DNA of 64,000 nucleotides from assembly GCA_041675145.1 (NCBI GenBank), contig JBAYUK010000002.1, positions 152,530 to 216,529 on the forward strand. Reading direction: 5' to 3'. Of this stretch, positions 20,568-57,675 are shown piece after piece; position 1 is the first letter of the stretch; the number at the start of each line of letters is the position of its first letter. A model generated the notes under the pieces. That model was not told the DNA's origin, searched no databases, and saw nothing but the letters and a program-made list of their open reading frames with translations. The position numbers and the translations under genes were made by a program. The stretch comes from Patescibacteria group bacterium. GTDB lineage: Bacteria; Patescibacteriota; JACPGU01.

Positions 20568-20908
20568 CCAGTAGTCTAGGCTTATTATTCGTTGCTAATA
20601 AAAGCTCTTCGCAAGGCTCCAGATGTAAGCTAAGATACGTGGACTTTTGCCGTATTCGTGGTAAAATGACTTAACAATTGAGTAGTGCCTAACCCCGAAG
20701 TTTTCGCTTCGGATATGGCGCAAAACCCCCAACCAAGATACTGAACCCCGTGTTCAGCAACTCTTGGTTGGGTCATATCGGGAAACTGATATGGAGTCGC
20801 AAGACTCGGCTGGCGCGGGGCTTAGTGTATCTAAGCGTTGTTGCCAGCTACTTATTATAGAGAGCTGGATTTTTTTATTATTAACGCACAATACTAATAA
20901 CTACATAT

Positions 20909-21370
20909 ATGAGCAATACAACAAACGATAAAGAGTTTAAGGGGTATAACGGCACGCTAATACTCACCAATACAGGAATTATCATAAAGCGTGGCACGAA
21001 GGGATTCCTGCTCGGTGGCTTCCAGATGAGAGGAGACAAAACGATACCGTATAGCAGTATTGTGGCAGTACAGTTTAAGAAGGCTGGGTTATCTGCCGGT
21101 TATATCCAGTTTACTCTCAAGGGAGGATCAGAGGCAAAAGGCGGTTTGCTCCAGTCAACCAGAGATGAGAACAGTATTAATTTCCACTCCAATAGAAACA
21201 AAGAGTTTATTGAAGCAAAGGAGCTTATCGAACAGCGCATTGGTTCAGAAGGATCATCTGCTAGACCAAGCGAACTCGATGAGCTTACAAAACTCGCTAC
21301 TCTGAAAGACAAAGGCATTATTAATCAGAAAGAGTTTGACGCTAAGAAAAAACAGCTCCTTGGCTTATAA
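20909..21370 (+). CDS. PH-like (DUF4429-type) domain protein with C-terminal SHOCT domain
   Basis: C-terminal LKDKGIINQKEFDAKKKQLL matches the SHOCT pattern. Confidence 0.55.
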   Translation: MSNTTNDKEFKGYNGTLILTNTGIIIKRGTKGFLLGGFQMRGDKTIPYSSIVAVQFKKAGLSAGYIQFTLKGGSEAKGGLLQSTRDENSINFHSNRNKEFIEAKELIEQRIGSEGSSARPSELDELTKLATLKDKGIINQKEFDAKKKQLLGL

Positions 21371-21392
21371 TAATCATTAGTAACTCACCACA

Positions 21393-22055
21393 ATGGCATT
21401 TATCAATGGCTTCTTTTCGTTCCTATTCTTTATTTCGTTTATTTTATTGATTGTGGGGCTAATTGCTCCTAAGAAAGTAAGTAGGCTTTTGAAGAAAGAT
21501 TGGGACCGCAAGATGATCGCAAAAACTATCGGTCTGGTCTCGTTGGCATCCTTCGTTATTGCAGTGGCTACTACGCCCGCTGTTCCGGTATCTCCAAAAG
21601 CTACTAAAACGTCTACAGTTACTGAAACCACTGAGCAGGTTCAGGCAATAAATGTAGAGGAGCCACAAGAAATTGTGTCAGAGGAAGTTAAAGAAGCGGC
21701 CAAGGATTCAGCAGTAAGTGAAACTAAGCCAGCAACATCATCGCCGACTCCTCAAAAGACCACCAACTCGAGTCCTGCTCAAACGACCACTTCTCCTACG
21801 CCAGCGACATCGAGCCCTACACCAACTCCACAACCAGCACCAACAACCCCCGCGCCTACTCAACCAGCACCACAACCAGCACCAGTTCCATCTGGTCACA
21901 CGTTTTATACCAGTTCGCACTATAGCGCAAAATTATATTACTGTGATACAGATGAAGGGTGGAGAGGCCTTTCACCAAGTTATCTCAAATCTTTTCCTAG
22001 CGCCGAAGCATTATTGAAAGTATACCCAAGAACACTTCACGAGCCGTGTAAATAA
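21393..22055 (+). CDS. secreted/anchored Pro-Thr-rich protein with conserved Cys-containing C-terminal domain (paralog of the next gene)
   Basis: N-terminal TM, PT-rich linker, C-terminal HTFYTSSHYSAKLYYCDTDEGWRGLSPSYLKSFPSAEALLKVYPRTLHEPCK. Confidence 0.6.
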   Translation: MAFINGFFSFLFFISFILLIVGLIAPKKVSRLLKKDWDRKMIAKTIGLVSLASFVIAVATTPAVPVSPKATKTSTVTETTEQVQAINVEEPQEIVSEEVKEAAKDSAVSETKPATSSPTPQKTTNSSPAQTTTSPTPATSSPTPTPQPAPTTPAPTQPAPQPAPVPSGHTFYTSSHYSAKLYYCDTDEGWRGLSPSYLKSFPSAEALLKVYPRTLHEPCK

Positions 22056-22058
22056 AGT

Positions 22059-23189
22059 ATGGAAAGTAGCGCTTTAACCCTTTTATTCTTCTTACTGTTT
22101 ATAGCTTCAGTTGTATTACTGATTGCTGGATTAATATGGCCGCCGATTCTCAAGCGACTTATTAAGTCTGTTCCCACTAGAAAAGCAATAGCCTTATTCT
22201 TCTCGGGGCTAATAGTGACTTCTTTCATTGGAGTAGCGGTCTTCGTTCCGCATAGTAATAGTAGAATAACTGCTGATACTGTTTCAGAGGAAAAAACAAA
22301 CATAGAGCAAGAAGCTCAAGGCGTACCTGTTAGCACCCAAGACGGTGTCGGTGCTGGCACTATTGAAGAAGTTACTGCCGAGAAAACGGTGCGGTCACTT
22401 CCTGATCAAGCTTCTAGTAGCACAAAAACAGCGACACCGACGCCCGCGCCGAGCCAACCAACTTCAGCACCCGCCAAGCCCGCGCCGAGCCAAGTTCCAG
22501 TAGTTGCACCACCTGCACCCACACCAGCCACGACCACGTACTTCTCAGTCGTTTCCGTAACTGACGGAGATACTTTTAAAGTATCTATAGATGGGAAGAC
22601 TGATACTATACGTATTATCGGTGTAGATACTCCAGAAACTGTTGATCCAAGAAAACCCGTGCAATGTTTTGGGGTAGAAGCTTCAAGCAGAGCCAAGGCT
22701 TTACTTACTGGAAAGAAAGTAAGATTGGAGTCGGATAGTGTCTCGGGTGATCGAGACAAGTATAACCGCTTGCTTCGTTATGTGTGGCTCGAGGATGGTA
22801 CTTTTTTTAACGAGACCATGATATCCGAAGGATACGCCTTCGAATACACTTATCAAAGTCAGGCATATGTGTACCAGTCTGAATTCAAGAAAGCTGAACA
22901 GAACGCAAAGAATTCAAAGCTAGGACTTTGGGCGGATAATGCCTGTAATCAGACAACGCAATCTGCCGTAGTGCCACCTGTAGTTTCGCCTCCCGCAACA
23001 GCTCAGCCCGTACCTACTACAACATCTTCGCATGTATTTTATACGAGCTCATATCATACTGCTCAATATTACTATTGCGATACTGACAACGGATGGAAGG
23101 GTCTTTCGCCGAGTTATCTTAAATCATTCCCAAGTGCTGAGGCGTTACTGAAGGTATACTCGAGAACACTTCACGAACCCTGTAAGTAG
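22059..23189 (+). CDS. secreted thermonuclease (staphylococcal nuclease fold) with the same C-terminal domain
   Basis: SNase core DGDTFKV...IRIIGVDTPE...RLLRYVW...GYA; C-terminal HVFYTSSYHTAQYYYCDTDNGWKGLSPSYLKSFPSAEALLKVYSRTLHEPCK. Confidence 0.8.
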   Translation: MESSALTLLFFLLFIASVVLLIAGLIWPPILKRLIKSVPTRKAIALFFSGLIVTSFIGVAVFVPHSNSRITADTVSEEKTNIEQEAQGVPVSTQDGVGAGTIEEVTAEKTVRSLPDQASSSTKTATPTPAPSQPTSAPAKPAPSQVPVVAPPAPTPATTTYFSVVSVTDGDTFKVSIDGKTDTIRIIGVDTPETVDPRKPVQCFGVEASSRAKALLTGKKVRLESDSVSGDRDKYNRLLRYVWLEDGTFFNETMISEGYAFEYTYQSQAYVYQSEFKKAEQNAKNSKLGLWADNACNQTTQSAVVPPVVSPPATAQPVPTTTSSHVFYTSSYHTAQYYYCDTDNGWKGLSPSYLKSFPSAEALLKVYSRTLHEPCK

Positions 23190-23636
23190 CTATTCTGATA
23201 TGCCCTTTTCCTCTTCAGCCATCTCCTTATGAAGCTTTAGTGCCCATTCTGCGATCGTCTCCGGTGGCGTTTCATTGATGATTATGGAGTGTACTGGAAC
23301 GAATGACTCAACATCTTTTGTAGGTACTTTGGGTGTATACTCCGGGTCTCTGCTCTTAAGCTGAAATACGATAGCCTGCATATTGCCTTCTTTTATCTTT
23401 TGCGTTAAGGCAGACTTAGCAAGATCGTTTAATGCAGCTCTTCCGAGTTTACGCGCCTTGGTTACTTCATCTGCAAGATCCATATCTTCTTCGATCCAGC
23501 GATAGAATGTTGCACGGGAGACGCCTGCCTTTTTGCATACTATGGATATATTGTCGAGTTCACTTAACAAGGCAAGAATCTCTTTCTTGTTTTTAGCAAT
23601 TCTTTTTTGGTCAGTTTTAGCTTTCTTGTCTTCCAT
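23190..23636 (-). CDS. HTH protein resembling phage terminase small subunit
   Basis: CKKAGVSRATFYRWIEED helix-turn-helix near the N-terminus; located next to two DNA methyltransferases as in phage packaging modules. Confidence 0.45.
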   Translation of the reverse strand: MEDKKAKTDQKRIAKNKKEILALLSELDNISIVCKKAGVSRATFYRWIEEDMDLADEVTKARKLGRAALNDLAKSALTQKIKEGNMQAIVFQLKSRDPEYTPKVPTKDVESFVPVHSIIINETPPETIAEWALKLHKEMAEEEKGISE

Positions 23637-24381
23637 GAGCTTTTTTACCCGTTAACTTTTCCCACCGTTGAACGATCGTAGCGCAGTACTCCAAATCCTG
23701 CTCGACCATAACACACTTCCGCTTCGTATGCTCGCACGCAACTATTGTGGTTCCTGATCCACCGAATGGGTCGTACACCACATCTCCCACCTCAGTGCAG
23801 TTTAGAATGAGCTTACGAATGAGGCCGACTGGCTTCATGGTGGGGTGGAGCTTGCTCTGTTGTGGCTTGGGCGCAAACAACACCGACTTATCTTTACTAT
23901 GCTTGAAGTCATGCGTACCATACCAGCCATAGAGGATTAGTTCGTGTTGCGGGAGATAGTCAAGTCGACCAATGACAGGTTTGTCTTTGACCCAAATAAG
24001 CAACTGCGCTACTTTGATCTTCATATCTACGCAGGCTTGGCGCAGGGCAAAGACCATCTTGTCTGAATTGAAGATGTAGATACTATTCTTCTTCGTGAGA
24101 TACGGCAGCGCGGGACCAAGCCACCCTTGCGTAAAGGTCGCGTACTGCGCATCTGACATATGCCCGTCATTTTGGATATCTTTATCTTTGGATACTTTTT
24201 GTAAATCTCGCTTGCTGGCGACATAGTCGATACCGTACGGCGGATCCGTGATAATAGCGTTGATCTTGCCATCTTTCAGGATAGCCTTCAGATCTAAGGT
24301 ACTGGCATCCCCACAGACTAAGGTGTGGTCACCGAGCTGGATAATATCCCCGGACTTAATTGAGTTTGATGGCTGTGTCAT
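23617..24381 (-). CDS. DNA (N6-adenine/N4-cytosine) methyltransferase, beta class
   Basis: Motif IV IITDPPYGIDY before motif I VYDPFGGSGTT; start placed at MTQPS (24381) with GGGAGAA upstream rather than the longer ORF from 24438. Confidence 0.85.
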   Translation of the reverse strand: MTQPSNSIKSGDIIQLGDHTLVCGDASTLDLKAILKDGKINAIITDPPYGIDYVASKRDLQKVSKDKDIQNDGHMSDAQYATFTQGWLGPALPYLTKKNSIYIFNSDKMVFALRQACVDMKIKVAQLLIWVKDKPVIGRLDYLPQHELILYGWYGTHDFKHSKDKSVLFAPKPQQSKLHPTMKPVGLIRKLILNCTEVGDVVYDPFGGSGTTIVACEHTKRKCVMVEQDLEYCATIVQRWEKLTGKKAHGRQES

Positions 24382-25630
24382 TGGTAAGGTTCTCCCAGCG
24401 GTTAATAATAAGTTGGCAAAAAACAGGACTTTGCTCAATCAGATACGCGACACGCTTTAGTTGTTCGCAGGCGAGCAAAGTTGAGCCACTCCCACCGAAT
24501 AGATCGAGTACCGTATCGCCGATCTTGGTACAGCGCATCAGCGGTCGCTCGTGTAAAGTGAGTGGCTTCTGGGTGGGGTGATTGTAGTCGTCACTCGCAT
24601 CTCGCTTAACCAACCAAATGTCGATCAGGTCGGCGACATCATCAAGAGTGGCATTGCCAATGCCGACTTCAGTATTTAAGATCTCCGCAAACTTGGTATG
24701 TTTATCCGACAAGTACGGTTTTCCCACCGTGCCATAGACACACGGTTCATACAACTTCGAGAAGGCTATCTGCGGAGTCGGATTAATACCGTTCTTAATC
24801 CACAAACACGTCCGTTGGTATTTGATTCCCAGCTCCTCGTATACCGATTGCACCATCCCGACGTAGCGCTCATCACACCACCAGAATAGATGCGTATCTT
24901 TTTGCGCAACACCCAGGGCGTTACCTAAAGTCTGCTTCGTAAAGAGTCGGAACGCATCGTCGGACAAGGAATCGTTAACTGCGCCACCATAGTTAGCTTT
25001 GCCGCCAATCCCTTTGTTATAGTCGAGGCTAATATTGTATGGGCTGTCGCAATACACCATATGTACTCGTGTTTCGCCAACTAACTTTTGTACAGCTTCC
25101 ATGTCGGTGCTATCTCCGCACAGTAACCGGTGATTGCCCAGCTGAAACAGGTCACCGGACTGGATGTCTGTAGTTAGCGCTTTCTCGATCTCTTCCTCCT
25201 CATTGAAGCTGTCGTCTTCCAATTCCAGAACATCGTCCCAGATACTGGAAAGATCGGTATCGTCAAAGCCGATATCGAGTAAGAATTCGGTATCGAATTC
25301 CTTGAGGAGATCAAAATTCCACGAACCCGTATTGCGGTTGGAGCGCAGTAAATATTCGTCGAATTCTTTTTGATCAAGTAATCGACTCGGTACTCGCACA
25401 TCGATTAGTTCTTCGCCACGACCCAGTTCACGCAGGATAAAGAGTCGTTGGTGACCAGCAATCACTGTGTTATCTAAGTTGATCGCTGGAATTTCAACGA
25501 GGTCAAACTTCGTAATACTTTTTGTCAGATCCTTTTTCTGCTGCGCGCTCAAGGTACGCGGGTTCTTGGAATAGGGCACCAAATCTGAGACTTTACGTTT
25601 TTCTGTGTGCCACTGAATAGATTTTTTCAT
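24356..25630 (-). CDS. ParB-N-like domain fused to DNA methyltransferase
   Basis: N-terminal ParB-like nuclease domain (...IAGHQRL...), CDSPYNISLDY (DPPY-type) and LDLFGGSGSTL; start at MKKSIQW (25630) preceded by AGGAGA SD; the longer ORF start at 25675 lies inside an upstream terminator hairpin. Confidence 0.85.
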   Translation of the reverse strand: MKKSIQWHTEKRKVSDLVPYSKNPRTLSAQQKKDLTKSITKFDLVEIPAINLDNTVIAGHQRLFILRELGRGEELIDVRVPSRLLDQKEFDEYLLRSNRNTGSWNFDLLKEFDTEFLLDIGFDDTDLSSIWDDVLELEDDSFNEEEEIEKALTTDIQSGDLFQLGNHRLLCGDSTDMEAVQKLVGETRVHMVYCDSPYNISLDYNKGIGGKANYGGAVNDSLSDDAFRLFTKQTLGNALGVAQKDTHLFWWCDERYVGMVQSVYEELGIKYQRTCLWIKNGINPTPQIAFSKLYEPCVYGTVGKPYLSDKHTKFAEILNTEVGIGNATLDDVADLIDIWLVKRDASDDYNHPTQKPLTLHERPLMRCTKIGDTVLDLFGGSGSTLLACEQLKRVAYLIEQSPVFCQLIINRWENLTNDTAIKLN

Positions 25631-25654
25631 AATATATTCTCCTAAATTTACCAA

Positions 25655-25730
25655 TAAAAAATGCCCACTCTGCAAAATAACAAACCAGGAAGATTTACTC
25701 CCTAAATTTATTTTTCTGCAAAGTGGGCAC
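25655..25730 (-). terminator. large-loop intrinsic terminator for the 117-aa gene
   Basis: Inverted arms atgcccactctgcaaaata / ttttctgcaaagtgggcac followed on the minus strand by TTTTTTATT. Confidence 0.5.
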
Positions 25731-25805
25731 GACCGAGGCGAAGCCTCTCTGGTGTCTTACGACACCTTCTATCACCCGAAGGTGAAATACGTGATACTCA
25801 CTGTG

Positions 25806-26159
25806 TTATCTACTGCTCGATTGTAAAAATGCTGTCAACTCGTTAGGGCGATGTGCCTTCAGAAATTCTATCGCATCTTTTCCAAGAAATACCGGCGCGC
25901 CACCCTCCGGCATACGAATACGAAGTTTTTTACCTTGTTTCTTTGCCAAAGCATGGGCACGTTCAATCTCAGGATTATGGAAAATAACTCGAACCGTATC
26001 TTTACTACCCTCGATCTGCTTGATGTCCGTACTATACGCACGCTGTTCTGTCTTGGTATTGATCGATCGCTCAATAACGCGACCAACAGATTTTGGTTTG
26101 CGCGGCAGCTGAACATTCAGCTCGAGGTCATAAATGTATACATCGATAAACTCTTCCAT
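25806..26159 (-). CDS. hypothetical protein, divergent from the repressor gene
   Basis: ORF only. Confidence 0.45.
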   Translation of the reverse strand: MEEFIDVYIYDLELNVQLPRKPKSVGRVIERSINTKTEQRAYSTDIKQIEGSKDTVRVIFHNPEIERAHALAKKQGKKLRIRMPEGGAPVFLGKDAIEFLKAHRPNELTAFLQSSSR

Positions 26160-26267
26160 ATCCGTATACTAGCACGAAGGGAAAGTGGGTGTCAAGCGTG
26201 AAACATATGTTACGGCTCTTTACGAAAAAGTTATTGAAAGTTCAAAAAAGTATGTTATTATTCAAGT

Positions 26268-26918
26268 ATGAATCCTATCCAAAATGAATTGATGACCCTA
26301 GCCAAAGACCACGATCTCGGTAAAATGAGTTATCGTCAGATAGCAAAACTGATCGGAAAAGAAGGCAGGCCTCAGCTAGTGAAGCATCATCTTGAACAAC
26401 TTGATAGGCAGGGATTAATGCAGGTCAATCTGAAAGAAAAGGTAATTCGCCTGGTCAAGAAAGGGTTCAATAAAACTAAAACAGAAAATTCGTTTTACTC
26501 GTTACCAATTGTTGGTTCGGCGAATTGTGGTCCAGCTACCATATTCGCTGACGAGAGCGTCCAGGGATATTTGAGAGTTTCAGCAAATGTGTTACCTCGA
26601 AAAAAACAGGACCTGTATGTGCTCGTAGCAGATGGCGGATCAATGGATCGGGCTTCTCTTAAAAAAGGAGGTCCTACTATTGAGGATGGCGATTTCGTGG
26701 TTGTAGATAGCTCAAAAGTCAGTCCAAAAGATGGTGAAGTTGTGGTGGCGGTTATTGATCGCATGGCGACTATTAAGCGCTACAAAAAAGATCCAAAGAA
26801 TCACCGCATTATCCTTCAGCCCGAATCAACAGAGAACTATTTCCCAATCATTGTGCAGCAAGGTGATAACTTTCAAGTCAGCGGAACAGTCATCGACATC
26901 ATCAAGAAAGCAAAGTAA
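26268..26918 (+). CDS. LexA/CI-like repressor (winged HTH + S24 peptidase domain)
   Basis: N-terminal HTH YRQIAKLIGK...; C-terminal VADGGSMD (Ser nucleophile) and ...ATIKRY (Lys). Confidence 0.75.
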   Translation: MNPIQNELMTLAKDHDLGKMSYRQIAKLIGKEGRPQLVKHHLEQLDRQGLMQVNLKEKVIRLVKKGFNKTKTENSFYSLPIVGSANCGPATIFADESVQGYLRVSANVLPRKKQDLYVLVADGGSMDRASLKKGGPTIEDGDFVVVDSSKVSPKDGEVVVAVIDRMATIKRYKKDPKNHRIILQPESTENYFPIIVQQGDNFQVSGTVIDIIKKAK

Positions 26919-35791: not shown

Positions 35792-36640
35792 ATGGAAATT
35801 CTAAACATAAAAATAAAGTCAGAGTATAGTAGTATATTGGACCAGGGAGTAAAGAGAAACTTTACTCCTGTATTTGCCATGCTTGGTATTGGGGTGTTCA
35901 ATATTCTTATAGAACTCTTCTCCCGGCATTTCATGTCTGTTCACGCAGCAAACATACTGGTAGAGTCGTTCCATGTTCTCATCTACTTTGGTATCCCACT
36001 GCTACTTGTGGGGACGAGTCGGCCGTATCAGGGATATGCCTTTGTGGCGCTTTATACTATAGCAACATCACTACTCTATGCTCTTGTTGAGTTGCAGTAT
36101 ATAAGCACCTACTGTAGTGTGCTTTTTATCGTACTTCTCTTCATATACATACTCTGTACTAAGAAGAGATCTCGTTTACTTATTCAGGTAAAGCCACTCA
36201 AAGAGGTGGTGGTCTATAGTCTCACCGCAGCGTTTTTGATTATAGGGCATGTATTCTTTGTGGTTTCAACGTCTACTAACTACCAATTCAATGCAGTAGT
36301 GCTGCACGAGATACTGCCAAAGATTTTCTATATGGTATTTGGTATCTTCGGGATGGAAGTGTTCTTTAGGGGCTATATATTCAATCAGTTAAATAGAGAG
36401 CTTAAGATTCCATTTTGGATATCTGCAGGTGTTTCAACAATACTCTTCATGGGTCCATTCTTGGTAAACCCTTTTTTCACAACCAATATCTACCTAGGAG
36501 TAGTAATAGGGTTTTACTTACTACTCATTGGATTTGTCTGTTGCGCTTTAGCTAAGAAAACAAAAAGTATTATCCCTCCATTTGTTGTGAGCTTGGTTAT
36601 TGCAATCATTCGCTACTCAGTAATTTTTGGTCCTATATAA
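35792..36640 (+). CDS. CPBP-family intramembrane metalloprotease (CAAX protease / Abi domain)
   Basis: Polytopic; MEVFFRGYIFNQL matches the EExxxR / FxxxH motif region. Confidence 0.55.
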   Translation: MEILNIKIKSEYSSILDQGVKRNFTPVFAMLGIGVFNILIELFSRHFMSVHAANILVESFHVLIYFGIPLLLVGTSRPYQGYAFVALYTIATSLLYALVELQYISTYCSVLFIVLLFIYILCTKKRSRLLIQVKPLKEVVVYSLTAAFLIIGHVFFVVSTSTNYQFNAVVLHEILPKIFYMVFGIFGMEVFFRGYIFNQLNRELKIPFWISAGVSTILFMGPFLVNPFFTTNIYLGVVIGFYLLLIGFVCCALAKKTKSIIPPFVVSLVIAIIRYSVIFGPI

Positions 36641-36643
36641 AGC

Positions 36644-37911
36644 ATGAAAGTACTCTATAGAAATATGTTCGTTACGGTGGTTCTCGTTTTTCTCGCAACA
36701 ATTGTTGTGTACTGGGCAGAGCAAGCAAAACTACCGCACTTTGAATTATTTCGATACCTGTACTTTATACCAATACTTTTTTCAGCGCTTACTTTTGACT
36801 TTGCTGGTGCAGTATATGCATCGGTTACCGTTGTTTCTCTCTACATTCCGATATTGTTCTTAAGGCTTGAAAGCCGGGGCGTAGATGATGCTTCTGTTGA
36901 GCTGTTTATTACCTTAATGCTCTTCGTAGTTATTGGAGTTATAGTGGGAATTGCTTCAGGCAACGAAAGAAGGAAGCGCGAAACATACCAGGCTTTATCT
37001 GAACTAGGTAATATTATTTCGTACTCGTTTACGATCGATAAACTACTACCTGAAGTGCTCAATACAATTGTGAGAGTGACAGAAAGTGCACGGGGTGCCA
37101 TTGTATTTATAGATACAGAAAAAGAGTTCTTCACTCTACTGGATAGTAACAATCAGGTACAAAAGATTCGTAATAATTCAGATACGCCATTGCACGACTT
37201 ACTGACAATAAAAAAACCGTTCTTCATTAATAACATTGCACAAGATGAAAGGTTGCTCGTGTCTGATGATATGGGTGAGTTCGTATCTATGATGGTATCT
37301 CCAATTATAGTAAAAGATAGAACAATAGGTTTGGTGATTGTAGAAGACAAGGTTGAGGAGAAGCGATACGCAACAGACAATGCCCAACTACTCTTCACGA
37401 TTGCCACACAACTGGGTGCAAATGTTACGAACCTCAAGCTGTACGAGCTTGCCGTCATTGATGGACTAACTCAGACATATACGCATCGTTTCTTCCAGAA
37501 CAAACTCAAAGAAGAACTAAAACAGAAACCCGTCTCGTTACTGTTGGCAGATATTGATCATTTTAAAAGTGTAAACGATACCTATGGTCATCCTGAAGGA
37601 GATGTAGTGTTAAAGCAGGTTGCCAAGATTATGCAGGAAGTAGTTGGTGACATGGGGGAGAAGAATTCAGTATTATTCTCCCCGGTACGAGTAAGGAAGA
37701 AGCACTAAGAATTGCACAGGCAATCTGTGACGCGGTCTCGCTGTATCCTTTTGTATTGAAGGATCAGAAGAAGGTTATAACCATTAGTATTGGGGTATCA
37801 TTCACAGATAGTGATTGCCATCCTCGAGAGTTAATTGAAAAAGCAGACAAGAACCTATACGTCGCAAAAGACACGGGAAGAAATAGGGTCTGTTCGACCC
37901 ATGCCGTATAA
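36644..37911 (+). pseudogene. membrane sensor with GAF-like domain and GGDEF diguanylate cyclase, interrupted by a 1-nt frameshift in a G5 tract at the GGEEF motif
   Basis: Frame A ends ...VVGDMGEKNSVLFSPVRVRKKH* at 37708. Shifting one base within GGGGG at 37654-37658 gives GGEEFSIILPGTSKEEALRIAQAI...LYVAKDTGRNRV*, a complete GGDEF C-terminus ending at 37911. Confidence 0.7.
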
Positions 37912-41731: not shown

Positions 41732-41803
41732 GGTCTCATCGTCTAGTGGTTAGGACAACAGGTTCTCATCCTGTAAACAGGGGTTCGATTCCCCTTGAGA
41801 CTA
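41732..41803 (+). tRNA. tRNA-Glu (anticodon CUC)
   Basis: Acceptor GGTCTCA/TGAGACT, anticodon stem ACAGG/CCTGT with loop TTCTCAT, T-arm AGGGG-TTCGATT-CCCCT. Confidence 0.85.
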
Positions 41804-46474: not shown

Positions 46475-46927
46475 ATGACTGATACAAAAAAAGTTTTTAC
46501 AAAAGATAGTTTATTTCGGCAGGTAATACTGTTCTTTGGAGTTGGTGTTATTAATACAGCAATTGATTTTTTTATTCTCAATGTTTTAACATACAGTACA
46601 CAAATTCACCAAGGTATTTGGTTTTCAGTATTTAAGGCTATTTCTTTCTCTGCGGCTACTGCAAATAGTTACATCATGAATAGTAGGTTTACATTCTCGG
46701 TAGAAAAGGAGAGAGCAGTAAAAGATGTGCCCGCTTTCTTGTTGGCGAGCATGGTAGGCCTTCTTCTTAATGTCTCAGTAGCAAGTGTTATTGTGCATTA
46801 CTGTAACGCACTACTTCCTGAAATGAGTGGACAGCTCGTAATAAACATCGGGGGTCTTGCTGGTACTGCAACGAGTTTGGTTTGGAATTTCGTGAGCTAT
46901 AAGTATCTCGTATTCAAAAAGAAATGA
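46475..46927 (+). CDS. GtrA-family membrane protein
   Basis: Four TM helices; FFGVGVINTAIDF pattern. Confidence 0.7.
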   Translation: MTDTKKVFTKDSLFRQVILFFGVGVINTAIDFFILNVLTYSTQIHQGIWFSVFKAISFSAATANSYIMNSRFTFSVEKERAVKDVPAFLLASMVGLLLNVSVASVIVHYCNALLPEMSGQLVINIGGLAGTATSLVWNFVSYKYLVFKKK

Positions 46928-48705
46928 AAAAAATAATAATAGCATTTATCGTTTCGTTGTGTGTCCTAATCCACTTCTCGTTGGGTTTATATGCGATGCA
47001 AGGAGACAGTGCTATTGTAGATGAGCTTGCACATATACCTGCTGGGTATAGCTACGTCACTTTACATGATTACCGGTTAAACCCAGAGCACCCTCCGTTA
47101 CTAAAGATACTAAGTGGTTTATCTTTGAGTACTCAAGATTTACATTTTGATACAAACGAGAAATCCTGGAGCCAAGATATAAACGGTCAGTGGGAATCAG
47201 GGTGGAGTTTTCTGTACCACCAAGGTAATGACCCGGATGTGATTCTCTTTTATGCACGACTACCTTTCTTAGTAATTAGCTCCTTATTTGTTCTCCTATT
47301 CTTTTTTATTACAAGGTATCTAGTGGGGGTAAGGGCGGCGGTTCTCGGAACTGTACTTTTAGCTTTTTCTCCAACGCTACTTGGGCATAATCATTTTGTT
47401 ACTACTGATGTTGGGGTAGCGATACTAACATTCCTTTCGTTATTCTCAGTTTGTTATTCATTAGAAAAAAAGACTCGGGTGAGCTTTGCGGTTTCTGCTC
47501 TTATTACAGGTCTGGCACTTTCTGCTAAGTTCTCTGCCTTCCTTATACTGCCGGTAATCTTTTTGGCGTACACAGTATTTACAGTTCGCGATGTTGTTGC
47601 TCAGAAAGAGAAAGTACATATTAAGAAGGTGCTCTATGTGCTGCTGAAGAGGGCAGGTGAGCTCATTGTTTTTATGGCTTTGGCATACACGGTAGTGTGG
47701 TTGGTGTATGTCTTTGCGATGTATAACATGCCCGCAGATAAGATACAGGAGCTTGTTACTGTTGCGATTCCAAGTAAGGGATTGTTGCAAGAACTACTTC
47801 TCAGATTTAGTAGCAACCCGGTGCTTAAGTATTTTGTGCAGTATGTTGTTGGTTTTATTATGGTTCTTCATCGTGTTGATGGCGGTAACACTACTTTCTT
47901 GCTCGGAAATGTTACGAACCAGTCGTTTAAGTGGTACTTTCCATTCGCATTTATTGTGAAGGAGACGGTAGGATTCCTAGTCCTTTTTGCTCTTACAATT
48001 CTAGTTTTTACAAGAAGTGTATCGTGGAATAAACTTGTTTCTCGTTTCAGTAGCGGTAGAAAAGCGGCAGACTGGATTATATATACGATAAAAAGTCTGG
48101 ATGTATCTCAGTTATTTACTATTTCTTCTATAGTCTTTGTTTTTATTTATCTGTATTTTTCAATAACTGGTAACTTAAATATAGGGATTAGGCATCTCAT
48201 GCCAGTACTGCCTTTCCTTTACTTTATTACTGCAAAGCAAATTTCTATTTGGTTAGGCAGTAGGTTTAGTTGGAGAACTATTTTTGTAGGGTTATGTATT
48301 ATAGGTACTGTATCTTCAGTTATTATCTCTGCACCGTATTATCTAGCATACTTCAATGAGCTATCTGGAGGACGCAACTCCGGGTATAAGTTGTTAACGG
48401 ACTCTAACTTAGATTGGGGTCAAGATTTGGTGAGACTAAAAAAGTTTATGAATGATAATAATATACCCAAGATAAAACTGGATTATTTTGGTGGTGGGTT
48501 GCCTGAGCATTACTTAGGAACTAGCTACGAAAAATGGTCTAGTCAAAAAGGGGAAACAAGTGGCTGGGTTGGTGTTTCTGCGACTTATCTACAAAATAGT
48601 CGTTGGTATCACATACATAACAACGAGCCTGATTATGACTGGCTAAGAAGTAAAAAACCGTTTACTATCATTGGCGGATCTATTTTAATTTACTACATAC
48701 CCTAG
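46924..48705 (+). CDS. GT-C glycosyltransferase (PMT/ArnT-like, GT39/83)
   Basis: Polytopic; first-loop DE motif DELAHIP. Confidence 0.65.
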   Translation: MKKIIIAFIVSLCVLIHFSLGLYAMQGDSAIVDELAHIPAGYSYVTLHDYRLNPEHPPLLKILSGLSLSTQDLHFDTNEKSWSQDINGQWESGWSFLYHQGNDPDVILFYARLPFLVISSLFVLLFFFITRYLVGVRAAVLGTVLLAFSPTLLGHNHFVTTDVGVAILTFLSLFSVCYSLEKKTRVSFAVSALITGLALSAKFSAFLILPVIFLAYTVFTVRDVVAQKEKVHIKKVLYVLLKRAGELIVFMALAYTVVWLVYVFAMYNMPADKIQELVTVAIPSKGLLQELLLRFSSNPVLKYFVQYVVGFIMVLHRVDGGNTTFLLGNVTNQSFKWYFPFAFIVKETVGFLVLFALTILVFTRSVSWNKLVSRFSSGRKAADWIIYTIKSLDVSQLFTISSIVFVFIYLYFSITGNLNIGIRHLMPVLPFLYFITAKQISIWLGSRFSWRTIFVGLCIIGTVSSVIISAPYYLAYFNELSGGRNSGYKLLTDSNLDWGQDLVRLKKFMNDNNIPKIKLDYFGGGLPEHYLGTSYEKWSSQKGETSGWVGVSATYLQNSRWYHIHNNEPDYDWLRSKKPFTIIGGSILIYYIP

Positions 48706-48710
48706 CTACC

Positions 48711-49523
48711 ATGGAAAAAAAACCAACAGACATATTTATCAAAGAAAAAGTAGTTACTGGAGCACGACACCGAGAGGGTGGTGGTGTTTATTTGTCTGTA
48801 GTTATTCCGGCATATAATGAATCACAAAGAATAATACCTACACTTGAAGCAGTTGATCAGTATCTTAAAAAGCAAGACTACTCGTATGAGATTATTGTGG
48901 TGGCAAATAACTGCACAGATAATACAGTTGAGGTCTTGCTTGATCAGCAGAATAAGATTCAGCACTTAGAAATATATGATCTTGAGATTTTAAAGCCTGG
49001 AGGAGGTAAAGGGTACGCCGTAAAAAAAGGTGTCGAGAAGTCGCGCGGTGAGTATATCGTTTTTATGGATGCTGATAACGCCACTAAGATAGATGAGATA
49101 GGTAATTTTTGGAAATTCTTTAAAGAAGGGTATTCTGTTGTAATTGGAAGTCGCCATATTAAAGGATCTAAAATAGTAGTCCAACAACCCCTCCATAGAA
49201 GAATCTTGGGTAGGGTAGCTAACTTAGTTATTCGCTTACTCCTCCTTCCAGGAATCCACGATACGCAATGTGGCTTTAAAGCGTTTACGAGAGATGCTGG
49301 CAAAAAGATTTTTGCTTTAAGTGAAATTGGGGGGTGGGGGTTTGACATGGAGCTTCTTGCTCTTGCTCGGCACTTTAGATATACAGTAGCCGAAGTACCA
49401 GTAAGTTGGTACGAGGCAGGTGACTCTCGTCTTCGGGCAGTAAAGGCTGCTAGTAGTACGCTTAGTGAACTCTTCCATATTCGAAACAATATAAAAACAG
49501 GCTACTATGACAAAAAGAAATAA
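48711..49523 (+). CDS. GT2 polyprenol-phosphate glycosyltransferase (dolichol-P-mannose synthase-like)
   Basis: LSVVIPAYNES, FMDADN (DxD), QCGFKAF. Confidence 0.85.
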   Translation: MEKKPTDIFIKEKVVTGARHREGGGVYLSVVIPAYNESQRIIPTLEAVDQYLKKQDYSYEIIVVANNCTDNTVEVLLDQQNKIQHLEIYDLEILKPGGGKGYAVKKGVEKSRGEYIVFMDADNATKIDEIGNFWKFFKEGYSVVIGSRHIKGSKIVVQQPLHRRILGRVANLVIRLLLLPGIHDTQCGFKAFTRDAGKKIFALSEIGGWGFDMELLALARHFRYTVAEVPVSWYEAGDSRLRAVKAASSTLSELFHIRNNIKTGYYDKKK

Positions 49524-50139
49524 GACGCACATACCTTTTTGGGATAACGTAGACCGATACCTAAAAACAGAGACCACAGACAGTATTACCCTTGCTCTTC
49601 TTGAAGCAGATAAGACATGTACAGTAATTGCAAAACAAAAGTACTCTAATTTTAAAACCGAGAAAGAGCAGCTCGATGCATTTACAAAGGATCTTAAGAG
49701 ACCAGAGACTTTTTTACAACTTAAAGAGTATGTAGATAAGATTCGTTACGAACCTGGGTTTATATTACCCGACCCATACCAAGGGATGGAATATATACAA
49801 CGATACAGAGAGTTGTTACAGGAATCTTTATATGGTGAAATTTCCGAGGAAGAGTATTCAGTAAGTAAACTCCTTCTGCGTCGTATCCATTCTTTTTATT
49901 TACTGAGAAAACAAAACATAAAAAAAGCCGTGCTATGGCTTCTGGTAATTGTGGCAGTTATGTTGTTTATATCTGACACTCAGGTAGGGGCTAATGTATT
50001 TACGTTTATAATAGAGCAGCTCCATTTTATATTAAAGATGATAGTTATAGGTGTAGCGGTAATTGCACTGGTTGGATTTATTTTGATATTTTTTATAACG
50101 GGTCTTGAAAAGAGAACACTCTCAAGAAAGAGGCGTTAA
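49507..50139 (+). CDS. hypothetical membrane protein
   Basis: ORF with C-terminal TM helices. Confidence 0.4.
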   Translation: MTKRNKTHIPFWDNVDRYLKTETTDSITLALLEADKTCTVIAKQKYSNFKTEKEQLDAFTKDLKRPETFLQLKEYVDKIRYEPGFILPDPYQGMEYIQRYRELLQESLYGEISEEEYSVSKLLLRRIHSFYLLRKQNIKKAVLWLLVIVAVMLFISDTQVGANVFTFIIEQLHFILKMIVIGVAVIALVGFILIFFITGLEKRTLSRKRR

Positions 50140-50559
50140 TTAGGCCGTAAGTTGCTTCATCCATTGTGACTTTCTAATTCCTACCGACTGGATAGTCATA
50201 GATTTAATATACGAGTTCAGCCGATTTCGTTTGTATGTATCGAGTTTTTCGTAGAGGAGGGAACTGATCTCAATAATGGTACTTTCATCGAGATCTGGCT
50301 TTAGGACATGGAGCATTTCATGTACGAGAGTCTCATCCATAGGGAACATGTATGGGTTTAGGACGATAGCATTATTCTCGTAGTCGATGTACCCACCTTC
50401 GTTGCGAGTCCTTGAAGAGACTACAATATCAAACTCTCCTTTATTGAGCTCTCTAAAGATGCGTTCGAACAGGATAGAAGACATGCTACGCGTATACTCG
50501 CGTGTCCTGTTTTTTATAAATTTCGAGCCCCTCTTCCTAGTGATAGTTGTACTATTCAT
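50140..50559 (-). CDS. SprT-like zinc metalloprotease-domain protein
   Basis: HEMLH (HExxH) preceded by an IVLNPYMF-type segment as in the SprT N-terminal domain. Confidence 0.45.
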   Translation of the reverse strand: MNSTTITRKRGSKFIKNRTREYTRSMSSILFERIFRELNKGEFDIVVSSRTRNEGGYIDYENNAIVLNPYMFPMDETLVHEMLHVLKPDLDESTIIEISSLLYEKLDTYKRNRLNSYIKSMTIQSVGIRKSQWMKQLTA

Positions 50560-50630
50560 AGGAAGTTTTTATTACACAGCCATTATAGCATAGAAATGCT
50601 ATTTTGTCAAATAATAGACCAGGGATTTGC

Positions 50631-52682
50631 CTATGGCAGCTGTACTGAAATATCTTGGCTTAGTTGAGCTGTATTTGAGTAGAGAGTGCTCGTTTCAGAG
50701 TTAGACTTCATGGTTACCTGAAGGGTATAGGTGGTGTTGTTTAGTCCTGCTTGTTTCTGGATATACAACTGGTAGGGCTGTAGTGTAACTGGAGTATCAT
50801 AGGTGATCGAAAAAGAGTTAGTCTCTCCTGGTTTTACTGTCGTCCAGCCTCCGAAGACGGTTTTTTCATGCTCAGTTGTGGTATCTAGTGGCTGTTTCTT
50901 TACTTCTTCCTGCCCTGGGCTGTAGGTAAGCATCCCATCTTCCCCACGTTGTATCTTAGAAGGGTCTATAAGGCCTCCAGAATCAATAATGGTAGTGTCT
51001 TTAGGGGTATACCACCTAAAGTAGGAATAGTTGGTTCCGCTCGGCCAACTAAAGCTTCCATGGTGCTTTCTCGTAACCGTTACGGTGTGGCGGGCCGTAC
51101 CCTCGTTCTTTGTAAGTTGAATAGTATGAACTACAGAGGTTTCGATCTCGTTGTTTGTTTTCATGCCTCCTATGTTTGCATCAACCATCATAAGGTAGTC
51201 ACCAGGGGGGTTCTTAATAGATCCCGTAACGCCAAACGTATCTAGTGCGCTCTCCAGCCTTTCTTCTGGGTGGTAGAATTGAATGTCTCTACTTATGATG
51301 CTCTTTGAGAATACGTTATATATCTCAGTTTGCTTGTCTTGGCCTAGGTGGCTGATAGCAGATAAGAGGAATGGTGCAAAGTCACCAATAAATTTTTTAG
51401 GGTTATTCTCGTTGGGATCATACTCTATGCTAGTTTTGTATTGAGTAAGGGAAATAAAGTTCTCATCTGTCACAACAGCATTATCTTGGGGTACAGATAT
51501 TGGACCGGTAATCTTCAAGAGGTTAACGAATAAATTAGTATCAACTGCAATTACTCCATCAGGGGTAAAGCCACCCTCCGCTTCATAGAAGTGAATGAGT
51601 TGTTTTGCGGTAGCTGGGAAATCTGGATCCCAGTTTGCATCTCTCATTGCGAGATACGGAGTAATCTTTTGTAGTGGGGTAGGGGGAGTAATCTTTTGGG
51701 TGAGCTGTCCATCTGGATTGTAGATGCTGTCGACAAATATTTTACTTATTACTCCTTTATGAACTGTAACTATCCCGTATGAGCCAATAAAGCCACCGGT
51801 TGGTCTAAGCTCTGTATTGTTCTGAAAAACCATCAGATACTTCTTGTCGTATGAGCTGGCAAGTAGTTCGGAGGAAGAGCCTGTAAGTGCGTCTAGTGCC
51901 TCTTTGTTTTCTTTATAGTAGTTAAAGGCCTTACTAACTTTAATGAGAGTATTCTTTTGGCTATCTGAAAGTGAGCTGTTGTGTGCTAGCGCATCCAAAT
52001 CTCGGGTAGTTTGTGTGATTATAGGTTGGTTGCTTTGTATCTTAAAGGATAGAGAGTTGAGGTGCTCAATAAGTTGCGTGTTATCTTTGGATTTATCAAA
52101 TACTGTGCCTATTTCAAAGGTTTTGAAGTACTTAACTTCATCTAAAAATTCTAGCCCTAATGATGTGAGGTTATAGGCGACTCTTACAAATGCCTCTTTT
52201 TCGTTAATAGGATCACTAAAGGAGAGATGATTATCAAGGAAGTAGTTATTCTGGCCTACCGCTTCTATCTGACCCTTAATATATGAAAGCTTACCTTGAG
52301 CTTGTGTAAGCTTATTTCGTGCTTCTTCAAAGTTATTTTCTTCTATGTCCTTTTGTGCGCTTGTGAGTAGTGGCTGGATACTGCTTCCTTCATCTACTAT
52401 ATTTGAAGCAAATGTTTTTAGTTTGATAGGTAGAACTATAATTGTGGCTATTAGTAAAGTAAAGAAAGAGTATCTAAGAATGAGAAGGCCGTAGTTACTT
52501 TTTTTAGTATTTAGTTTTACTTCGGGTATATTTTTTTCTAAGTCTACCCATGGGTGCGATTCCTCCAGAACATCTCTTTTGTCTATATAGTCTTTCTTGG
52601 ATATAAAAATACCATCAATTTTTTTTGATAGATTACTTGAGCCCATGTTGTTTTCTTCTTCAGATCTATCACTAGTATGCAT
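50631..52682 (-). CDS. large exported hypothetical protein (N-terminal TM anchor; possibly DUF4012-like)
   Basis: 683 aa ORF, N-terminal TM, no catalytic motif recognised. Confidence 0.5.
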   Translation of the reverse strand: MHTSDRSEEENNMGSSNLSKKIDGIFISKKDYIDKRDVLEESHPWVDLEKNIPEVKLNTKKSNYGLLILRYSFFTLLIATIIVLPIKLKTFASNIVDEGSSIQPLLTSAQKDIEENNFEEARNKLTQAQGKLSYIKGQIEAVGQNNYFLDNHLSFSDPINEKEAFVRVAYNLTSLGLEFLDEVKYFKTFEIGTVFDKSKDNTQLIEHLNSLSFKIQSNQPIITQTTRDLDALAHNSSLSDSQKNTLIKVSKAFNYYKENKEALDALTGSSSELLASSYDKKYLMVFQNNTELRPTGGFIGSYGIVTVHKGVISKIFVDSIYNPDGQLTQKITPPTPLQKITPYLAMRDANWDPDFPATAKQLIHFYEAEGGFTPDGVIAVDTNLFVNLLKITGPISVPQDNAVVTDENFISLTQYKTSIEYDPNENNPKKFIGDFAPFLLSAISHLGQDKQTEIYNVFSKSIISRDIQFYHPEERLESALDTFGVTGSIKNPPGDYLMMVDANIGGMKTNNEIETSVVHTIQLTKNEGTARHTVTVTRKHHGSFSWPSGTNYSYFRWYTPKDTTIIDSGGLIDPSKIQRGEDGMLTYSPGQEEVKKQPLDTTTEHEKTVFGGWTTVKPGETNSFSITYDTPVTLQPYQLYIQKQAGLNNTTYTLQVTMKSNSETSTLYSNTAQLSQDISVQLP

Positions 52683-52686
52683 AGAT

Positions 52687-53814
52687 CTATAATACTATAC
52701 TTTCTAGAGTTTTTTGAGCCACTTCTTTCCACTGAATAAAATCTTGTTTTGTTGTGTCTGGAGTAAGACTCTTGATATTATCTGTGTCTATTAGTAGATC
52801 TAGGGCTTTGGTGTAGTAGGAGGTTACATGTGGATTAATAAATAACGCCCCTTGATTGATTATTTCTGGTATCGATGATACTGATGAGGTAACTACTGAC
52901 TTACCAAAAGAACTCGCCTCTATTACTGGTACACCAAATCCTTCATACAGAGCAGGGAATAGGAACAGGTAGCAGTTTCTAAAAAGTGCCTCCTTCTCTC
53001 TGTTAGTGATATAGTCGGTAAAAACAATATCTGGGTGTTTCTCTTTTAATACTGAAAGTGCTTTCTTGTATAACCATCCTTTTTTTCCTGCAATAACAAG
53101 TTTTTTATTTATTAGTTTAGATTTGAGATATGAGTCTATTACCATAGATACGTTCTTTCTTGGTTCAATTGTTCCTAAGAAAAGAATATATTCATTTGTC
53201 TCAAGGGACCATTTGCGCAGTGTATCCAAGTCATTGTTGTGTGTATCTTTCGACTTGGTATCAAAATCGTAGGCATTTGGTATAACAACAATTTTGTTTT
53301 CGTCTATGTTATAGATATCTATGAGATCATTTTTTGTAGCCCGTGAGACGGCTATTATTTTATCGGCTTTTTTTGCCATTACTTTTGGATTCATCTGGAG
53401 ATGCCACAGATTTTTCCTAAAAGAGAAGTACCGCTTATCTTTTTCAAAAGATAAGTCGTGAATAGTTAGTACTTTCTTAACTTTTTTAGAGAGAGGAATA
53501 AAGTAAAAGTGGGGAGAGAAAAAGTAATCCACTTTAAGAATCGTATCTATCTTCGGATAAGGAAAGAACCTCCATGTCCATTCTAGGATTTTGTTCGGTA
53601 TTCTAAATATTTTATATTCAGATATTTCTAAAATGTCCTTAGGTATAATATTTGAAACATTTCTAAATGAGTTGAAGAAAAGTACAAAAGTATAATCAGG
53701 ATTATTTAAGATAATATTTTTTATTACATAATAAGCATACTCTGGTATTCCAGAAGAGTATGCTTCTTGCAGCATTCGGGCATCAATACCAATTCTCTTT
53801 TTTGTTGTATTCAT
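52687..53814 (-). CDS. GT4 (GT1 superfamily) glycosyltransferase
   Basis: EGFGVPVIEASSFGKSVVTS motif. Confidence 0.8.
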   Translation of the reverse strand: MNTTKKRIGIDARMLQEAYSSGIPEYAYYVIKNIILNNPDYTFVLFFNSFRNVSNIIPKDILEISEYKIFRIPNKILEWTWRFFPYPKIDTILKVDYFFSPHFYFIPLSKKVKKVLTIHDLSFEKDKRYFSFRKNLWHLQMNPKVMAKKADKIIAVSRATKNDLIDIYNIDENKIVVIPNAYDFDTKSKDTHNNDLDTLRKWSLETNEYILFLGTIEPRKNVSMVIDSYLKSKLINKKLVIAGKKGWLYKKALSVLKEKHPDIVFTDYITNREKEALFRNCYLFLFPALYEGFGVPVIEASSFGKSVVTSSVSSIPEIINQGALFINPHVTSYYTKALDLLIDTDNIKSLTPDTTKQDFIQWKEVAQKTLESIVL

Positions 53815-53819
53815 TTGTA

Positions 53820-55097
53820 TTACGAAACAATCAAGTTTGTTGTTGTCTCATGTCGTGAGAGGAGTGAGGCAATATATTTGAGATTATTGACTGGAGTATT
53901 CCCAAGGGAAATAGATATAAGAGTGTTCTTTGTTAGTAGCAGAAGAGGTAGACATTCAGATGAGATAGCAAGTGAAGGTACATGGAAAATTATACACTCA
54001 AACTTTTCTCCAAATTCAGTCATGAGCTCTTTTAGCTTCGCTCTCTCTATAGTATCTGCTGCATACGTGAGCTTATTTCCAGTTGAAAGTAACCATAAGT
54101 TTTGTTCGTCAGTTTTTTTAATGTGCTGAGTAAAGTTGTTTTCCTGAGTTAGGGTTTCTGCAAAGCCAGTATCGTTTTTAACATGCCAGAAATCGTGGAT
54201 TTGTGGTTGGTCAAAATACGCATCAACGACGAGAGTTTTCTTACCAGACCTTGCGTATGAGAGGGCTAGGTTTGCGGCAATCGTGCTGCTTACAATTGGT
54301 CTCTTCCCGGCATCAGACACAACTATACTGAAGTTGCCATTATTGCCTTTAAATAAGTTTAAGTTTGATCTAATGTAGCGGAATTTTTCGGCAACTCGTG
54401 TCTCAGGATGAAAAAGACCCTGAAGCTTTATCTTACGAAGAGAAAGGGGTAGTGTGTTGAAGATAGAGAGCACTGCAAAAGTAGTATTTATAGTTGGACT
54501 AAACGATTCTCTAATAAATGTAGCAATGAGGGCAAGTATAAGAGAGATAATAAAAGCGACAAAAATAGTTAGTAGTGTGTTTTGCTGAACGGGAGTGGTT
54601 ATGAGTTGAGAAGAGACAATCTCAAAGTCTGTTGAAGCTTGGTCTAGCTTTCCAAGTTGGGCTATTCTTTCCTCGACTGTCTTAATAATATTACTCGCAA
54701 CTTCTTCTGCCTGTTTTTTATTGCTATTAGAAACAATCAAAGAGATGTTCTGAGGAGGAATCTTTTGAGTGTAAATACTTTTACTGAGGGCATTTAGTTT
54801 TCCTGACTCAACAGATATTCCTGATTTTGCATATACATCTGAGACGAAACTAGTACTTCTAATCCAGCCAATAATGGTGTTAATAAAGAGTTCACTTGCT
54901 TGAATTGCGTAAAAACTACTGTACTGATACTGTGTACTGTTTTCTCTTTTTGCTTGAACGGTAATAATTGCAGAAGTCTGAAAAGATTCCTTTTGATTGA
55001 GCGAGTAGTACGACGCAGCTCCCGTTATAACAACAACTATAAGAATAATTAATAGTAGTCTTCTTTTCACAATGGCGAAAAATTCTGTAATTTCCAT
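53820..55097 (-). CDS. polysaccharide co-polymerase (Wzz-like) fused to degenerate BY-kinase-like domain
   Basis: Two TM helices flanking a periplasmic coiled region; C-terminal P-loop-like VVSDAGKRPIVSSTIAANLA lacking the canonical Walker lysine. Confidence 0.5.
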   Translation of the reverse strand: MEITEFFAIVKRRLLLIILIVVVITGAASYYSLNQKESFQTSAIITVQAKRENSTQYQYSSFYAIQASELFINTIIGWIRSTSFVSDVYAKSGISVESGKLNALSKSIYTQKIPPQNISLIVSNSNKKQAEEVASNIIKTVEERIAQLGKLDQASTDFEIVSSQLITTPVQQNTLLTIFVAFIISLILALIATFIRESFSPTINTTFAVLSIFNTLPLSLRKIKLQGLFHPETRVAEKFRYIRSNLNLFKGNNGNFSIVVSDAGKRPIVSSTIAANLALSYARSGKKTLVVDAYFDQPQIHDFWHVKNDTGFAETLTQENNFTQHIKKTDEQNLWLLSTGNKLTYAADTIERAKLKELMTEFGEKFECIIFHVPSLAISSECLPLLLLTKNTLISISLGNTPVNNLKYIASLLSRHETTTNLIVS

Positions 55098-55106
55098 GGT
55101 ATGTAC

Positions 55107-56240
55107 CTATGATATAAAGGATGTATATTGTTTTTCTACAAACGACTGAAAAGATTCTTTAAATGAACTAAGATTAAATTTTTCTGCATTCTTTCTGCAT
55201 TCTTCTGGGCTAAACTGTATTTTTTCAAATCGTTCGATTGCATCAATAAGTGACTCTGGAGTTTGCGTATCAAAGAACACTCCAGTTTTATTCTCTACAA
55301 CCGTTTCCATTGCGCCACCTGCCCTATAGGCGATCACTGGTCTTCCTGCAGCTTGAGCCTCAAGTGGAGTAATGCCAAAGTCTTCTTCTTGAGGGAAGAT
55401 AAATCCCTTACATCGTGAGTAGTAGGTTGCAACTTCTTCATCTGAGAGACGGCCAAGAACCTGTACTGTGGGTCCTGCGGCTTGTTTGATCTTTTTAAGA
55501 TTTGGTCCGTTACCAATAATGATGAGAGGCTTCTTGAGGGTATTAAAAGCATCAATGACTATATCAGTTCTTTTGTAATCTACTTGCCTGCCAACTACCA
55601 AGTAGAAATCTTCAACATGTGCTGAAATCTGAAACTTCTGGGTATCTACCGGGGGATAGATAACGGTGCTTTCACGTCTGTAATATTTCTTTGTTCTCTT
55701 TTGGATGTAGTTAGAAATAGTAACAATGTGGTCTGGTCTTTGAGCTGCTATATAGTCCCATTGGCGTAGTACGTGAAGTTTTGCACGAACTATATTTTTT
55801 AAAACAGAATCAATGATCTTAAATGGAGTGAAGCGAACATACGCAACATATAAGTAATAGTAGTCGAGCATGTATCGGGTAGGGCTGTAAAGGTAGCATA
55901 TATGTAAAGCAGAGGGCTTGGTCATGACTCCTTTTGCAACCACATGGCTCATTGAGATAACGATATCGTACTGGGTTAAATCAAACTGCTCGATAGCACA
56001 CGGCATATAGTGGAGATAGAACTGCCATTTCTTTTTGGCTAAAGGCATTTTTTGTAGATATGAAGTCCTGATGTCAGCATCTTTAAACTCAGGCATCTTT
56101 TTTTCATCGTACATTAAGGTATATATGGGTGCATCTGGCCATATCTCATGAACTGCCATAAGGCACCGTTCTGCGCCGCCCCAGTTGGTCATCCAGTCGC
56201 ACACAATTGCTATGTTCGGTTGTAAGGTATGTTCTTGCAT
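55107..56240 (-). CDS. GT4 glycosyltransferase
   Basis: EDFGITPLEAQAAGRPVIAY motif. Confidence 0.8.
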   Translation of the reverse strand: MQEHTLQPNIAIVCDWMTNWGGAERCLMAVHEIWPDAPIYTLMYDEKKMPEFKDADIRTSYLQKMPLAKKKWQFYLHYMPCAIEQFDLTQYDIVISMSHVVAKGVMTKPSALHICYLYSPTRYMLDYYYLYVAYVRFTPFKIIDSVLKNIVRAKLHVLRQWDYIAAQRPDHIVTISNYIQKRTKKYYRRESTVIYPPVDTQKFQISAHVEDFYLVVGRQVDYKRTDIVIDAFNTLKKPLIIIGNGPNLKKIKQAAGPTVQVLGRLSDEEVATYYSRCKGFIFPQEEDFGITPLEAQAAGRPVIAYRAGGAMETVVENKTGVFFDTQTPESLIDAIERFEKIQFSPEECRKNAEKFNLSSFKESFQSFVEKQYTSFIS

Positions 56241-56255
56241 ATCGTTAGTATATCC

Positions 56256-57665: not shown

Positions 57666-57675
57666 AGATTTGGAA

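Follow-up and report, generated by a model that had tools for sequence, protein, structure and literature searches.

A GAF-GGDEF diguanylate cyclase gene probably inactivated in recent times by a small deletion beside its GGEEF codons in a Patescibacteria group bacterium

The split GGDEF gene and its neighbors

The gene described here lies on the plus strand of a 64,000-nt stretch of DNA (the window) from a metagenome-assembled genome (MAG) of a Patescibacteria group bacterium. An ATG at position 36644 opens a reading frame that ends with a stop codon at 37708 and encodes 354 amino acids. AlphaFold (AF2) models show a long helical, membrane-like N-terminus; this is followed by a GAF domain (ca. 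37031-37423) and by the N-terminal half of a GGDEF domain (ca. 37451-37648), after which 17 out-of-frame codons lead to a TAA, giving a C-terminus that reads ...QEVVGDMGEKNSVLFSPVRVRKKH before the stop. The remainder of the GGDEF domain is encoded in the neighboring frame, where TGA CAT GGG GGA GAA GAA TTC... translates as a stop followed by HGGEEFSIILPGTSKEEALRIAQ...NLYVAKDTGRNRVCSTHAV and a second stop ending at 37911. The GGEEF motif itself occupies 37654-37668, in a different frame from the N-terminal half, with the TGA at 37648-37650 preceding it, and this tail is open for 86 codons. An earlier sequence-only reading had described these two frames, with ends at 37708 and 37911 and a GGGGG run at 37654-37658, and rereading the sequence confirmed all of this. 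The features of the locus are as follows.

35792-36640, plus strand: Rce1-like (CPBP-type) membrane protease gene, intact (Pfam PF02517)
36644-37708, plus strand: truncated ORF, with N-terminal membrane helices, GAF, GGDEF N-terminal half, then out-of-frame tail
37650-37654, plus strand: putative deletion junction (GAC A/T GGG, the slash marking the junction), from which ca. 19 nt of the ancestral gene appear to be gone
37651-37911, plus strand: out-of-frame C-terminal GGDEF half, HGGEEFSIILPG...GRNRVCSTHAV and a stop codon; open frame, all invariant residues kept
37654-37658, plus strand: G5 run flanked by T and A; downstream frame CAT GGG GGA GAA GAA TTC
37655-37683, no strand assigned: inverted repeat/hairpin, GGGGAGAAGAAT / ATTATTCTCCCC, with 12-nt arms (92% complementary) and a 5-nt loop

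The locus thus encodes all of the conserved DIDHFK..ND..GH..GD residues as well as a canonical GGEEF. In the N-terminal half, D303, D305, N311, and D320 are invariant in the alignment; we take these residues, from our own alignment made without a tool, to correspond to the metal- and guanine-binding D327, N335, and D344 of PleD. The order TM-GAF-GGDEF and the encoded canonical GGEEF are those of PleD-type GGDEF cyclases (PF00990) with N-terminal sensors, whereas here the frame is broken before GGEEF and the six preceding residues are deleted. An RxxD I-site is absent from the aligned sequences of the window gene's clade. The actual ORF does not hold a full-length GGDEF domain in one polypeptide: it matches only positions 1-71 of the 161 in the GGDEF profile (PF00990), and no GG[DE]EF motif is in frame with the N-terminal half. 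An internal restart yielding the C-terminal half was considered and rejected, as that frame offers no start codon before a TTG at 37756, from which the product would be a mere 51 amino acids long. A scan for promoters and terminators in the region of the gene gave no more sites than shuffled sequence did, and a promoter-like match at 37647-37676 was disregarded. In the public record, the 354-amino acid product is MFA7309078.1, 'MAG: diguanylate cyclase [Patescibacteria group bacterium]', from a 366-kb contig; it is entered at NCBI (36644-37708) as an ordinary CDS with no pseudogene flag, though the product lacks GGEEF.

The nearest relatives are all full-length, namely P0002 (426 amino acids, 51% identity), P0003 (422 amino acids, 41%), and P0004 (448 amino acids, 35%). 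The Rce1-like gene lies directly upstream of the GGDEF gene in the window and in the P0002 and P0003 contigs, and the window protease shares 37% identity along its whole length with the partner of P0003 on contig L003 (E 2e-59). Because they share this upstream gene, P0002 and P0003 count as orthologs by position; the ancestral state is the intact single ORF. The pair formed by the Rce1-like gene and the TM-GAF-GGDEF gene is found at 35792-37911 in the window, at 4144-6269 of L002, at 3171-5296 of L003, and on the P0002 contig. The protease stop and the GGDEF start overlap or lie 3 nt apart, and the pair is kept in three lineages that are 41-51% identical, which suggests that the two genes are functionally coupled. 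To our knowledge, such a coupling has not been described. Five other homologs (P0011, P0012, P0014, P0019, and P0022), which are Elusimicrobiota and Endomicrobiia proteins of 589-605 amino acids, carry an unusual fusion of Cas4-like/PD-(D/E)XK nuclease domains (PF01930, PF12705) with GAF-GGDEF.

Diguanylate cyclases are already on record from ultra-small lineages of groundwater, Patescibacteria among them (PMC9938205), so that a member of the GGDEF family is no surprise here. No other GGDEF gene was found in the window, and Pfam gave no EAL, HD-GYP, or PilZ domains. A surface-glycan/exopolysaccharide cluster lies ca. 9 kb downstream of the gene (46475-57665; GtrA, PMT_2, GT2, DUF4012, two GT1, Wzz, and Bac_transf). 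In other bacteria, such glycan pathways are often controlled by c-di-GMP. Further upstream, the region 19239-26918 resembles a mobile element or prophage remnant. It includes a large serine recombinase gene (19239-20567, minus strand), an SHOCT/DUF4429 protein, an SNase-domain protein, an HTH protein like a small terminase subunit, two adjacent N6/N4 DNA methylases, and an S24 (LexA-like) peptidase. A full-length match to the LOOT RNA motif (RF03000; 20686-20807, plus strand; 88.7 bits against a gathering score of 46.4) sits in a 341-nt gap adjoining the recombinase gene. The remaining RNA genes of the window are housekeeping.

57675-58028, minus strand: RNase P RNA class A (183.8 bits)
8435-8507, plus strand: tRNA Gln-CTG
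41732-41803, plus strand: tRNA Glu-CTC
58748-58820, minus strand: tRNA Gln-TTG

Nucleotides missing before the GGEEF codons

The sequence-only reading took the break for a slip of one base in the G run and proposed that six Gs would restore the gene. One added G does reopen the frame, giving a 422-amino acid protein with a GAF domain at residues 130-260 and a match to the whole GGDEF profile (positions 1-161 of 161, 122.7 bits); by HMMER, the domain aligns to PleD (PDB 1w25), its best PDB match, with an E-value of 1.3e-24. However, this protein is not a normal one. In the alignment it runs from VAKIMQEVVGD across a six-residue gap to MGGEEF and is six residues shorter here than every aligned homolog, P0002 reading ...VAKIVSDTVGEKGICCRYGGEEF over the same stretch. 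The homologs carry ca. 6 extra residues (..KGICCRY..) between VG[DEN] and GGEEF, such that xxxxCRY precedes the motif, and the gap relative to PleD 1w25 likewise falls in ..AIDLPCRY, the segment leading into GGEEF.

A census of motif spacing gave the same picture. Both motifs could be scored in 116 homologs, and GH..GD and GG[DE]EF are 23 residues apart in 109 of these, 24 in five, 20 in one, and 17 in one; in the window gene the spacing is 17. The residue at position -2 of the motif is Arg in all 117 homolog motif occurrences and the pair before the motif is RY in 114 of them, whereas the window has DM. The homolog P0078 also has a spacing of 17 residues, but it keeps its ..IPARY strand. We rejected a P0078-style placement of the six-residue gap in helix alpha2, because VAKIMQEVVGD pairs residue for residue with VAKIVSDTVGE of P0002; this placement is also contradicted by the AF2 model of the repaired protein.

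In the AlphaFold model of P0002, the beta2 strand is present at 338-341 (ICCR), between helix alpha2 (315-336) and the GGEEF turn, and a further strand spans 346-352; the block pLDDT is 96-97. The AF2 model of the protein with one added G shows no beta2: alpha2 (316-334) leads into coil with a single bridge residue, the next strand is at 343-347, and the block pLDDT falls to 78 at the junction, between neighbors of 93 and 91. With six residues missing, the beta2 strand and the Arg-Tyr pair before the motif (the beta2-beta3 hairpin) are absent. Therefore, a sixth G would reopen the frame without restoring the normal catalytic hairpin. Judged from sequence and model, neither the 354-amino acid form nor the form with an added G is expected to be an active cyclase.

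The shortfall can also be read directly in nucleotides. A frame-aware tblastn comparison of 119 homologs with the window, in which the shortfall was computed by adding the overlap between the frames to three nucleotides per missing residue, gave exactly 19 nt (six codons plus one nucleotide) in 106 of the 119. It gave 1 nt in four of the 119, where the six-residue gap was probably absorbed within a gapped HSP. The ortholog L002, the sole one with DNA at hand, reads GGT AAT AGA GGG TTC GTT TGT CGA TAC GGA GGA GAA GAG TTT, and the window at the same place reads GGT GAC A-T GGG GGA GAA GAA TTC. The interval from the conserved Gly-Asx codons to the Gly-Gly pair thus measures 21 nt in L002 and 2 nt in the window. 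At the junction, GGTGAC runs straight into GGGGGAGAAGAATTC, the deleted allele being GGTGACATGGGGGAGAAG, and the leftover A and T fit the first base of a Lys/Arg codon and the last base of the Tyr codon TAT. A single-base slip is thus not borne out as the lesion; going by these comparisons, a single 19-nt deletion directly 5' of the GGEEF codons is the most parsimonious explanation. No intact allele in a close relative (more than 51% identity) was found in the protein search or in genome or metagenome contigs: in the protein search, the next match after the truncated protein itself (98%) was at 51% identity, and the contig scans returned only distant GGDEF proteins of 29-31% identity.

Directly 3' of the junction, starting one base into the G run, lies the hairpin at 37655-37683. 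Its predicted free energy as single-stranded DNA is -9.5 kcal/mol (z -4.0), a stability not reached by any of 200 shuffled sequences. L002 has no such hairpin at the corresponding place. Since the two arms are made of codons for the conserved GGEEF and IILP, the hairpin is in part a by-product of codon choice. It may, speculatively, have promoted the deletion through replication slippage.

The same sequence could have arisen in two steps, with an 18-nt in-frame deletion that removed beta2 and then a real slip from G6 to G5. This would fit the continuous frame obtained with one added G and the arithmetic of 19 as 18 plus 1, and G runs in general slip more readily than mixed sequence. Nevertheless, it requires two events where one suffices, the leftover A and T are as expected from a single internal deletion, and no trace of further decay is seen elsewhere in the gene. 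We consider such a succession unlikely; under it the gene would still be a pseudogene, but the one-base slip of the sequence-only reading would have taken place.

Artifact, reversible switching, and recoding as alternatives

The single 19-nt deletion could in principle exist in the sequencing or assembly data only, with the gene intact in the organism; a homopolymer error of sequencing or assembly was among the options of the sequence-only reading. MAG consensus sequences may contain errors, a stable hairpin by the junction might disturb amplification or sequencing, and the 354-amino acid ORF has been annotated by NCBI as an ordinary CDS. However, a 13.4-kb contig in the Logan assembly of SRR6484325, made with a different assembler, encodes the same 354-amino acid protein and matches the window with 0 mismatches over 7,065 bp, lesion included; the MAG and this contig probably derive from one sequencing run and are independent as assemblies, not as data. 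(A literature search found no paper on sample SRR6484325.) A 19-nt deletion is also atypical of short-read error, and the region holds no repeat that could make an assembler skip 19 nt.

No other split or frameshifted gene was seen in the 64-kb window. The overlapping same-strand ORF pairs at 5828/6291, 23617/24356, and 43585/45041 each comprise two distinct, whole genes (L19 and RNase HII, two DNA methylases, and DnaX and DnaB), the other ORFs of at least 100 amino acids have near-complete Pfam matches or no match, and the ORF set covers 90% of the window. An artifact therefore seems quite improbable, and we infer that the deletion is a real mutation, carried by the reads and by the dominant genotype.

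Slipped-strand phase variation, which the sequence-only reading had raised, would have a reversible change between G5 and G6 turn a c-di-GMP synthase off and on. The likeness to the homopolymer contingency loci of Neisseria, Haemophilus, and Campylobacter is that a G run stands where two frames meet, and that one added G reopens the frame. Known G/C contingency tracts are usually 7-8 nt or longer, whereas this tract has only 5 nt, and G6 would not give an intact protein: in the 'on' state it would have neither beta2 nor the Arg present in all 117 homolog motifs, so that repair of the frame leaves the protein unrepaired. L002 encodes Gly-Gly as GGA GGA, and the tract is therefore not conserved; the G5 run is best read, from these codons, as the native GGG-GGA Gly-Gly pair of GGEEF rather than as a shortened tract. 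A G5 run is nothing out of the ordinary in this DNA, although runs of at least five G or C are depleted, not enriched, in the window (22 observed versus 36.6 ± 6.2 in mononucleotide shuffles), and the longest within the 64 kb is a G6. The tract also sits two-thirds of the way into the gene rather than in the 5' region or promoter.

Enzymes of c-di-GMP metabolism do phase-vary elsewhere, but through invertible promoter elements. PdcB of Clostridioides difficile (PMC9286219), a phase-variable c-di-GMP phosphodiesterase with an upstream invertible DNA element that is switched by site-specific recombination, is a precedent for stochastic switching of this metabolism, whereas the present case concerns a cyclase gene and a coding homopolymer. 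Phase variation of an active synthase is thus unsupported, and we regard it as very improbable.

A variant of this idea fares no better. Slippage between G5 and G6 in the population might alternate the truncated TM-GAF protein with a full-length one whose beta2-less, non-canonical GGDEF domain keeps some signaling role, which we hold to be highly unlikely; that such a domain might serve, for example, as a nucleotide- or partner-binding module with the co-conserved Rce1-like protease is as slight a prospect. If true, the toggle would be a coding-homopolymer phase switch in the c-di-GMP signaling of a CPR bacterium.

Finally, programmed -1 ribosomal frameshifting or other recoding might join both frames in translation, and the required shift is indeed -1, with an RNA hairpin possible at 37655-37683. 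A -1 frameshift site consists of an X XXY YYZ heptamer, a 5-9 nt spacer, and a downstream structure, conserved in orthologs; here the slippery heptamer is absent from ATGGGGGAG (the sequence is ATG GGG GAG), the hairpin begins within the supposed slip site and leaves no room for a spacer, each ortholog is one unbroken ORF, and the product would be the same beta2-less protein, which leaves recoding with next to no likelihood.

Probable inactivation of the gene and its meaning

We conclude that this is most probably an ordinary pseudogene: a membrane-anchored GAF-GGDEF diguanylate cyclase gene recently inactivated by a small (ca. 19-nt) deletion. Recent pseudogenization was among the options of the sequence-only reading and is the one we favor, with the difference that the lesion is a net 19-nt deletion beside the G run and not a slip from G6 to G5. 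In the course of events that we propose, ca. 19 nt immediately upstream of the GGEEF codons would have been lost as one event. The loss would have taken the codons of the beta2 strand and of the conserved Arg-Tyr leading into the active-site hairpin and would also have shifted the frame, such that translation stops 17 codons on. The product would be a 354-amino acid protein consisting of TM, GAF, and half a GGDEF domain without the catalytic motif, and it presumably makes no c-di-GMP.

The lesion looks recent, because the invariant alignment columns outside the deleted stretch are all kept on both sides of the junction, and because the out-of-frame tail has diverged no further from P0002 than the in-frame part (tblastn identity 54.9% versus 51.5%). 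A pseudogene created by a small frameshifting deletion is of a kind already known. Ordinary cases likewise have one disrupted ORF, intact orthologs elsewhere, recognizable and conserved halves, and intact neighbors. Nothing material sets the present gene apart from them, the only oddity being that the junction abuts the GGEEF/IILP quasi-palindrome.

A frame break beside a homopolymer can pass for a one-base slip if the repaired product is not set against its homologs. MFA7309078.1 should be excluded as a functional cyclase in surveys of CPR c-di-GMP capacity, since the catalytic motif is absent. The finding is biologically minor: it would be one more recently inactivated accessory signaling gene in the MAG of a Patescibacteria group bacterium with a reduced genome, and it fits ongoing gene loss.
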